64,000 nucleotides of DNA. Source: a virus. Lineage: Duplodnaviria; Heunggongvirae; Uroviricota; Caudoviricetes. The notes below the pieces were generated by a model. The model searched no databases. It saw only the letters and a list, made by a program, of their open reading frames with translations, and was not told where the DNA came from. Both the position numbers and the translations under genes were made by a program. The stretch lies in IMG/VR virus record IMGVR_UViG_3300024270_000052; one strand, given 5' to 3'. Below, in pieces: positions 62,822-63,625 of the stretch (positions are counted from its first letter, which is position 1; the number at the start of each line of letters is the position of its first letter).

Positions 62822-63625
62822 TTAATTAATTAATCCCCACTCTGCGAATTTTTCAAAACCGCCAAGTCCTTTAATATATCCACGTGCTACTTCTACAATT
62901 TCTGAATAAAGTTTAGTTTCTGTATCTACTGTAATTGTGGTATCACCAATAGCGCAAGAGATTTCTACAGGCTTGCCGGTCATTTGTGCAAAAATATGAG
63001 CATAAATATTAAGCGATATATCTGCTTTAGATAAATCCTTACCATGAAGTCCTCCACCGGTTACTGCATCTCCCATATCAGAGCCAAGTTTGCGGTTTGT
63101 CGCTCCTGTATCTACATCTGGACCGCCAGTCCAATAGCCGAGTGGATTAATATGAGCATCCGAATAATGACTAGCAATATCTTCTGTAGCAGCATTACTT
63201 TGGCAAATTGTTAATTTATCACCATCAAGAATATATTTTCCATCATAAGGATAAAGTTTATAAATACGTTTAGCAGTTTGTGTTAATTGCTTTTGCTCTT
63301 CAGTTGAAGGAATACCTTTAAAAATTCCATTATCACCACATCTAAAACCATATGCTTGATTTTTAGCAAGATAAGAATCCTGCAATACACACTTAAACCG
63401 AACTTTTAGTTTAGGCATTTCTGCAATGCGACGTGCTATTTTTACAACTTCTTTCTTTTTTAACTATTCAGAAGTTTCTGCAATAATTGTACATTCTCCA
63501 TGCCCAATAAGTACCTCAACTGCAACTTTTGGATTTTCATTAAGACTATAAGCATAATCAACAATAGCTCCAGCAATGCGGTCCGCAATCTTGTCTGGAT
63601 GTTTAGGATTTACTTTTTCAAACAT
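62822..63625 (-). CDS. metK: truncated S-adenosylmethionine synthetase (MetK)-like protein, one in-frame TAG
   Basis: ATG at 63625, TAG at 63464-66. 'KHPDKIADRIAGAIVD' (compare MetK 'GHPDKIADQISDAVLD'), 'RCGDNGIFKG', 'HINPLGYWTGGPDVDTGATNRKLGSDMGDAVTGGGLHGKDLSKAD...ISCAIGDT' match MetK N- and C-terminal domains. Only 267 aa against about 385: most of the central domain and the C-terminal 70 aa are missing. Confidence 0.55.

Follow-up and report, generated by a model that had tools for sequence, protein, structure and literature searches.

A compact S-adenosylmethionine synthetase homolog with an in-frame TAG codon in a TAG-recoded phage

The metK gene and its reading frame

We analyzed a metK gene, encoding a homolog of S-adenosylmethionine (SAM) synthetase (MetK), that lies close to the end of a 64,000-nucleotide stretch of phage DNA (Caudoviricetes; IMG/VR record IMGVR_UViG_3300024270_000052). 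This stretch, at its full length, is referred to below as the window. An earlier note, made from the sequence of the window, had placed a homolog of MetK, or methionine adenosyltransferase (MAT), at exactly 62822-63625 on the minus strand, and this assignment was confirmed by the reading frame and by the Pfam and PDB matches of the predicted protein. The gene, the unusual codon within it and its predicted ribosome-binding site are as follows.

62822..63625, minus strand: compact MetK/MAT gene, 267 sense codons in one frame, from the ATG (63623-63625) to the TAA (62822-62824)
63464..63466, minus strand: in-frame TAG, codon 54 of metK, in a variable loop after strand 3; read as glutamine (Gln)
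63635..63639, minus strand: strong Shine-Dalgarno sequence AGGAG, as read from the sequence, 9 nt 5' of the metK ATG at 63625

The predicted protein matched the Pfam domain S-AdoMet_synt_N over residues 3-67 (E = 1.4e-12), MetK chains from the PDB matched residues 3-66 and, as a separate stretch, about 156-214 (best E = 3.5e-11), and TIGR01034 (metK) was its sole match in NCBIfam. The motifs that had been quoted in the earlier note, HPDKIAD, GDNGIFKG and HINPLGYWTGGPDVDTGATNRK...GGGLHGKDLSKAD, were all found, except that the quoted TGRK is TNRK in the sequence. As a statement of homology the claim of a metK gene was therefore sound, but the gene is not a single uninterrupted frame, since an in-frame TAG at codon 54 had gone unmentioned. 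Under the standard code the frame falls into two open reading frames (ORFs) of 53 and 198 residues, and the public annotations differ on this point: the ENA pipelines call one 267-residue gene while the JGI calls show a split gene. No AGGAG-like site precedes the internal ATG at 63418, where the 198-residue standard-code ORF begins.

Phages in which a stop codon has been recoded, including those that use genetic code 15 (TAG = Gln), are a known general phenomenon. In the phage studied here TAG is a sense codon for Gln, in keeping with genetic code 15. The window, which has a G+C content of 31.6%, contains 53 in-frame TAGs across 27 long frames, examples being the genes at 21432-23063, 11766-12755 and 47010-48464 on the minus strand and at 53822-56353 and 58219-60471 on the plus strand. 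TAG density was highest in the lysin gene (11 TAGs), in a GIY-YIG endonuclease gene (6) and in the tail-fiber genes (2-4 each), and no TAG occurs in the ligase, gyrase A/B and DnaB genes. The lysin (21432-23063) has 543 residues, and its Pfam VgrG3-like lysozyme and Amidase_2 domains run across the TAGs. When it was aligned with its IMG/VR relatives, codons 280, 310 and 329, all TAG, corresponded to Q in 74-76 of about 81 sequences and to TAG in the remainder. One tail-fiber TAG likewise aligned with Q in a related contig.

There are no tRNA genes within the window itself. Just past coordinate 64000, on the same strand as metK, an array of 14 tRNAs was found (contigs L004/L005, positions 983-8471), and it includes a tRNA with the anticodon CUA (L004/L005:7401-7495) that lies ~1.6 kb before the MetK start and 1.2 kb past window coordinate 64000. 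At 95 nt this tRNA(CUA) is unusually long; its extra arm is large, A1 and C72 are mismatched, and it has G73. The sequence alone did not reveal the synthetase that charges it; it was the alignment of the lysin with its relatives, not the tRNA sequence, that settled Gln as the amino acid inserted at TAG. The related phage L009 also has a tRNA(CUA) (L009:1638-1732), and codon 54 of its metK is likewise TAG, the MetK proteins of the two phages being 94% identical.

Alignment of the family members showed that codon 54 occupies a variable loop position, so Gln at this site should be harmless, and that the 15 codons separating the TAG from the next ATG correspond to helix 2 in the other proteins. 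Because the phage reads TAG as glutamine, metK is predicted to encode one 267-residue protein, and the full-length form is expected to be made only when codon 54 is read as Gln by the phage tRNA(CUA). The window gene and the L009 gene differ by 24 synonymous and 13 non-synonymous changes in codons 1-188, which cover both sides of the TAG. The resulting rate of non-synonymous substitution relative to that of synonymous substitution (dN/dS) was 0.13; by this measure metK is under purifying selection. In the L009 copy (L009:2986-3790) the frame shifts near codon 190 and a stretch of N occurs close to the end, which could reflect an assembly error or a decaying copy. The phage of the window was itself recovered in 22 metagenome contigs, and its metK DNA was identical in L004 and across several independent assemblies. 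A megablast search of window positions 45000-64000 against GenBank phages returned no match.

Size, fold and active site of the compact family

The window protein has 267 residues and E. coli MetK has 384. The difference of ~117 residues bears out the statement in the earlier note that about 120 residues are missing, and that note had called the protein truncated. To place the protein among its relatives, a search was made that covered 5.8 billion proteins at a threshold of E<=0.001. At least 8000 protein clusters matched at this threshold (all scored candidates passed). Among the best 120 clusters nearly all had 260-268 residues, with 64-71% identity and 99-100% coverage; the exceptions in length were P0001 (214 residues, frameshifted) and P0041 (295 residues). 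The protein matched phrog_1569 ('unknown function') end to end (residues 1-266, E = 2.9e-62), and a library of representatives at 50% identity gave 298 matches at E<=1e-30 and 1998 at E<=1e-3.

The short MetK is carried by at least 600 IMG/VR stretches, by at least 543 species genomes, mostly of Bacillota, and by 25 GenBank phages. The last group comprises Streptococcus Javan prophages, Gardnerella phage vB_Gva_AB1, a Terrisporobacter phage, and Oscillospiraceae and Heliusvirales phages, and identity to the proteins of the Javan prophages, vB_Gva_AB1 and the Heliusvirales phages was 59-66%. Judged by these matches, the protein is no accidental truncation: in a very large family, ~260-267 residues is complete and conserved as a length, and the word truncated is misleading.

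Longer members of the family (346-415 residues) were considered as possible intermediates to canonical MetK and rejected, as a MAFFT alignment showed a family-specific insert after helix 2. In P0188, P0204, P0209 and P0231 this insertion has 60-130 residues and is without counterpart in canonical MetK.

The fold was assessed on an AlphaFold model of the family member P0003 (predicted local distance difference test score, pLDDT, 87.7; predicted template modeling score, pTM, 0.88). In a Foldseek comparison of this model with the PDB, the top 50 listed matches were all MATs, with E of about 1e-14 and a template modeling score of about 0.70 when normalized to the query. The alignments extended over 340-366 columns and spanned chains of 357-394 residues, with ~20% identity to bacterial MetK. 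A comparison with the BFVD library of viral structures gave no meaningful match. The secondary-structure string of the model contains three beta-alpha-beta-beta-alpha-beta repeats in the canonical order; the three-repeat MAT fold is therefore present, as seen in the model of a 72%-identical member.

For comparison with E. coli MetK we used hhalign and MAFFT, with an E. coli sequence identical to that of PDB 7LL3_A. With hhalign, residues 4-228 aligned on 9-305 of the E. coli protein (95.8% probability). The missing residues, ~30% of the canonical enzyme, come partly from about ten scattered loops and hairpins and partly from the final ~40 positions. At the N-terminus ~6 residues are lost. Farther along, losses occur in the loop that follows helix 2, in loops around the GDxG strand and between helix 3 and strand 6, and, in the middle repeat, in the long hairpin of strands 6 and 7 and in helix 4 with what follows it; a few residues are also gone near the GGG motif. 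At the C-terminus, FAEWGLI aligns with LRPYGLIQ of E. coli, and the last ~40 residues, the YGHFGR segment included, are absent. The earlier note had placed the loss in most of the central domain and in 70 residues at the C-terminus. This did not survive the alignment, in which all three repeats are kept and the losses are spread.

Active-site positions were compared in an alignment of 76 family members. H9, D11, K12, E37, E50, Q82, D98, D128 and K130 are invariant and correspond, in the same order, to H15, D17, K18, E43, E56, Q99, D119, D164 and K166 of E. coli MetK (numbering that counts Met1). Also invariant are W165, D172, R178, K179, K196, K200, D202 and I226, whose counterparts are F231, D239, R245, K246, K266, K270, D272 and I303. 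The motifs that contain most of these residues lie at the following positions.

63590..63601, minus strand: HPDK motif (H9, D11, K12), equivalent to E. coli H15, D17 and K18; invariant in the 76 members
63326..63337, minus strand: GDNG motif (D98), equivalent to E. coli GAGDQG (D119); invariant
63236..63244, minus strand: DGK motif (D128, K130), at the strand start after helix 3, probably equivalent to E. coli D164-A165-K166; invariant
63089..63148, minus strand: NPLGYWTGGPDVDTGATNRK (W165, D172, R178, K179), equivalent to E. coli F231, D239, R245 and K246; invariant
63020..63058, minus strand: GGGLHGKDLSKAD (K196, K200, D202), equivalent to E. coli GGGAFSGKDPSKVD (K266, K270, D272); invariant

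Every one of the catalytic and ligand-binding residues of the E. coli enzyme thus has an invariant counterpart, although E. coli F231 is replaced by W165 throughout the short family. Established structural work on MetK assigns to these positions the acid catalyst, the ligands of Mg and K, the lysines and arginine that bind triphosphate, the aromatic residue that stacks on adenine, and the contacts to methionine.

The genes around short metK in other genomes point to a use for SAM. In annotated phages the order is HNH endonuclease, a small terminase-like protein of ~182 residues, short MetK, one or two DNA methyltransferases, and TerL. The next gene on the same strand encodes a ParB-N + DPPY DNA methyltransferase (~417-425 residues) in 51 of 66 IMG/VR loci and in 38 of 67 genome loci; these are loci with room for a next gene, picked as best query matches, and the fractions (57-77%) are indicative only. 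In the relatives that were sampled, the ParB-fused methyltransferase gene usually overlaps the MetK stop.

The metK locus of this phage and its interpretation

The interpretation that we favor, with a probability of roughly 0.68, is that metK encodes a working compact SAM synthetase, dependent for its full length on the phage tRNA(CUA), and that across the family this enzyme feeds a coupled DNA methyltransferase. Homology, fold, residue conservation, recoding and gene neighborhoods were observed, and enzyme activity, oligomeric state and the use made of the SAM are inferred. The ~260-residue proteins of phages and prophages retain the MAT fold with its three repeats and a complete active site, and they have shed loops, hairpin extensions and the C-terminal ~40 residues. 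Reading of codon 54 as Gln by the phage tRNA(CUA) would yield the full-length 267-residue MetK, most likely a homodimer whose active sites, like those of every MAT, lie where the subunits meet. The enzyme would convert ATP and methionine to SAM, and the SAM pool would be raised or maintained during infection. In most relatives this SAM would then serve the ParB-fused DNA methyltransferase encoded by the overlapping gene, and progeny DNA would be shielded from restriction. A minimal SAM synthetase feeding phage methyltransferases had been proposed in the earlier note; that idea fits the family, with its invariant active site, dN/dS of 0.13 and coupled methyltransferase, but in this phage no methyltransferase is found near metK.

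Several observations weigh against this interpretation. The AlphaFold model is that of P0003, a 72% identical relative, and not of the window protein itself, and there is no solved structure of the ~260-residue form among the PDB matches. The window protein scored 54.1 bits against TIGR01034, for which the curated cutoff is 309.4, and so it does not rank as a full-length MetK equivalog. Among the Pfam domains, the N domain passes its cutoff (48.5 vs 33.1), the C domain fails (17 vs 25 bits), and the M domain was not detected in the window protein by the Pfam scan. The mapping of D128 and K130 depends on MAFFT and on the order of secondary-structure elements, and hhalign aligns this stretch differently. 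A literature search found no characterized short phage MAT and no enzymology or structure for the ~260-residue form, and in the papers found no enzyme activity was reported for any member of the short family.

The lack of a nearby consumer of SAM in this phage points the same way. No DNA or RNA methyltransferase or radical-SAM domain was detected with Pfam or PHROGs in the 39 larger ORFs of the window and in 4 ORFs upstream, scans of all 78 predicted window ORFs for DPPY/NPPY and PCQ/ENV motifs gave nothing convincing, and neither a methyltransferase nor a radical-SAM protein was found in the ~19 kb of flanks inspected. A SAM consumer in this phage is therefore presumed. The genome measures at least ~108 kb, as calculated from the position of the window end in an 87-kb contig, and part of it lies outside the sequence covered. 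At this genome size, the consumer may lie beyond that sequence. A second contig of 99 kb, reached via the protein at 4786-5883, contains a replication module and no methyltransferase. A look-up with the window protein at 1857-2813 found nothing, and a metagenome scan with the L005 AAA protein, aimed at sequence upstream of the tRNA array, gave only relatives of <=61% identity that are not the same phage.

The neighborhood typical of short MetK, with TerS upstream and the ParB-methyltransferase downstream, is not seen in the window. Here the neighbors are orf164 and a DUF2828/DUF7788 gene, and the features on either side of metK are as follows.

63640..64000, minus strand: 3' portion of orf164, the upstream gene, which runs off the window (complete product, 164 residues); phrog_6927 ('unknown function')
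62778..62806, minus strand: putative sigma-70 promoter, TTGACA-17-TATAAT with an extended TG, 12/12 consensus match, just 3' of the MetK stop

No Pfam match was obtained for orf164. It ends 14 nt before the MetK ATG, and since the gap is this short the two genes are probably co-transcribed. The putative promoter suggests that the DUF2828/DUF7788 gene is separately transcribed and that MetK ends its transcription unit. Directly downstream of MetK, the DUF2828 + DUF7788 gene (61180-62697, minus strand) encodes 505 residues and matches phrog_850 'RNA-binding protein'. A hairpin at 62724-62743 lies between the putative promoter and this gene. Another, a perfect hairpin of 14 bp with T-runs on both strands (61142-61172), separates it from the convergent gene at 60536-61117 on the plus strand and is likely a bidirectional terminator. 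L009 retains the order tRNA array, MetK, DUF2828. DUF2828 occurred in 0 of 160 other short-MetK loci, and it was rejected as a general partner of short MetK; the tRNA/DUF2828 association is confined to this lineage.

A number of other genes in the phage were noted. A cluster on the minus strand (29915-37547) encodes a NADAR protein (29915-30412), NAD synthase (NadE, 30381-31235), NAPRTase (31239-32462), a Macro domain (33673-34143), DUF5662, a cytidylyltransferase/NMNAT-like protein (34925-35473) and an isochorismatase/nicotinamidase-like protein (36138-36671). Taken together, these genes look like a complete NAD salvage route accompanied by enzymes that remove ADP-ribose. A candidate RNA/tRNA-repair set, also on the minus strand (26790-27867, 36684-37547 and 39521-40927), consists of a metallophosphoesterase and an AAA_33 kinase-like protein, a homolog of the Thg1-like tRNA-His guanylyltransferase, and a weak RNA ligase match. 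Two SPFH/Band-7 proteins are encoded at 25286-26749 and 38044-38991 (both minus strand), one of them with a flotillin domain. The 820-residue protein at 48761-51223 (minus strand) has no PHROG match; on the source contig it carries the Pfam label MVP_shoulder (major vault protein), and its C-terminal half is long, charged and coiled-coil-like. The 118-residue protein at 52070-52426 (plus strand), upstream of the tail-fiber genes, is labeled Mtd_N (major tropism determinant N-terminal domain) on the source contig. Beyond coordinate 1 of the window (L331/L332:16155-21101), the gene for DNA polymerase III alpha appears to be interrupted by a NUMOD3/GIY-YIG endonuclease gene, which leaves it as two ORFs, and the replication module on L331/L332 includes SPbeta-like YorF and YorH proteins.

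Other explanations of the metK gene were weighed against the same data. It could be a pseudogene, with the TAG as a nonsense mutation and the homology as a decaying remnant or a matter of two unrelated small ORFs. The break of the frame into 53 and 198 residues under the standard code, as in the JGI annotation, would fit, and so would the additional frameshift of L009 near codon 190; however, TAG is recoded throughout the genome, relatives have Q at the corresponding positions, a cognate tRNA(CUA) is present, the same TAG is kept in the diverged L009 with a dN/dS of 0.13 across it, the codons that separate the TAG from the following ATG match helix 2 of the family, and the sequence is identical in several independent assemblies. 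Given the recoding evidence and the conserved TAG, we consider a pseudogene excluded for practical purposes. It could also be speculated, as in the earlier note, that the short protein acts as a dominant-negative subunit that co-assembles with host MetK and inactivates it, thereby lowering SAM and blunting SAM-dependent restriction and bacteriophage exclusion (BREX). A foreign subunit could in principle disturb sites that form at a dimer interface. A phage inhibitor that binds MetK is indeed known, T3 SAM lyase (PDB 8BB1, present in the Foldseek matches as a MetK chain). We regard this explanation as very unlikely, since a pure poison would not need the intact active site that invariant residues and purifying selection indicate, the SAM-consuming methyltransferase coupled in 57-77% of loci would starve if SAM fell, and an identity of only ~20% to bacterial MetK makes a compatible heterodimer interface improbable. 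Nothing was found in favor of such a poison in the present data.

A more serious alternative, though still a doubtful one, is that the protein is an active MAT-fold enzyme that serves other ends, such as SAM replenishment or counter-defense, supply for RNA or tRNA modification, or synthesis of a SAM analogue by altered specificity. It has in its favor that metK in this phage is not beside a methyltransferase and sits instead after a 14-tRNA array and before the DUF2828/DUF7788 gene, in an order kept in L009, and that the genome has the NAD salvage set and RNA-repair genes (Thg1-like, RNA ligase, kinase/phosphatase); it is also favored by invariant, family-specific variants of canonical motifs (RCGDNG, TNRK and LHGKDLSKAD). 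On the other hand, the residues that contact methionine, adenine and triphosphate are all retained, which points to ordinary SAM synthesis, the literature search found no SAM-depleting defense system, and the tRNA/DUF2828 association is limited to this lineage (0/160 other loci). A particular form of this alternative, which we consider improbable, would place the compact SAM synthetase in a metabolite-replenishing counter-defense toolkit together with the NAD-salvage and RNA-repair genes, with the TAG limiting its synthesis to the phase in which the suppressor tRNA is present. SAM may then be kept available when host shut-off, or an unrecognized SAM-consuming or SAM-depleting defense, drains it. 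The explanation that best accommodates these data is a compact SAM synthetase that, across the family, supplies a coupled DNA methyltransferase.

Comparison with known systems

If it is active, the short form would be the smallest MAT-fold SAM synthetase known to us. It would also reveal the ~30% of canonical MetK that a SAM synthetase can do without, and it could provide a compact scaffold for making SAM analogues. The tight coupling to ParB-fused methyltransferases suggests that the supply of methyl donor can limit self-methylation of phage DNA, which bears on restriction evasion. Gut virome surveys routinely count phage metK as an auxiliary metabolic gene, and the abundant ~260-residue form has apparently never been assayed or solved. 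There is also a lesson for annotation, as gene calling with the standard code cuts a real gene of a TAG-recoded phage into two meaningless ORFs.

Compared to canonical MetK (E. coli, PDB 7LL3/1RG9; TIGR01034; PF00438 + PF02772 + PF02773), the window protein shares the fold, the order of secondary-structure elements and the active-site residues. It differs in length (267 residues vs 384), in its identity of only ~20%, and in scores far below the curated cutoffs.

Viral metK has been described previously as an auxiliary gene that has conserved motifs, is under purifying selection and occurs together with dcm, also in phages of Streptococcus suis (Kieft et al., bioRxiv 10.1101/2021.01.05.425418), and K00789 was found in 58.9% of Heliusvirales genomes (PMC11283538). 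These phage metK genes (KEGG K00789 in gut phages; phrog_1569) form the family of the window gene, and the shortened architecture is not mentioned in the cited viral metK papers. The usual hosts of these genes are temperate phages of ~40-65 kb, in contrast to the phage of the window, which has at least ~108 kb, is TAG-recoded and AT-rich, and has a TAG in metK itself. The order TerS, MetK, ParB-methyltransferase, TerL that is usual in those phages is absent at the window locus.

In prophage Phi1207.3 of Streptococcus pyogenes, the MetK encoded by orf29 was proposed to supply the methyl donor (PMC4260502). Here too a MetK homolog is found in a module with an HNH endonuclease, a ParB-DNA methylase and a C5 methylase. 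By the description in that paper, however, orf29 is near full length at 353 residues, with strong matches to all three Pfam MetK domains, as opposed to the ~260-residue form.

T3 SAM lyase is a phage protein that destroys SAM and inhibits MetK (bioRxiv 10.1101/2023.02.27.530186; PDB 8BB1), and, as the window protein is predicted to do, it acts on the SAM pool of the host. The predicted action of the window protein is in the opposite direction and the folds are unrelated: by Foldseek the window family has the MAT fold and not that of a SAM lyase, and its synthetic site is intact.

With the recoded code-15 phages, the window phage shares the concentration of TAGs in genes for lysis and tails, a tRNA(CUA) of its own, and relatives that have Q where it has TAG. 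Nothing about its recoding is unusual, and the only specific point is that metK is among the TAG-bearing genes, which ties its expression to the suppressor tRNA. Phage metK has already been described, the compactness of the family is under-described yet not new in kind, and the TAG is ordinary for a code-15 phage.

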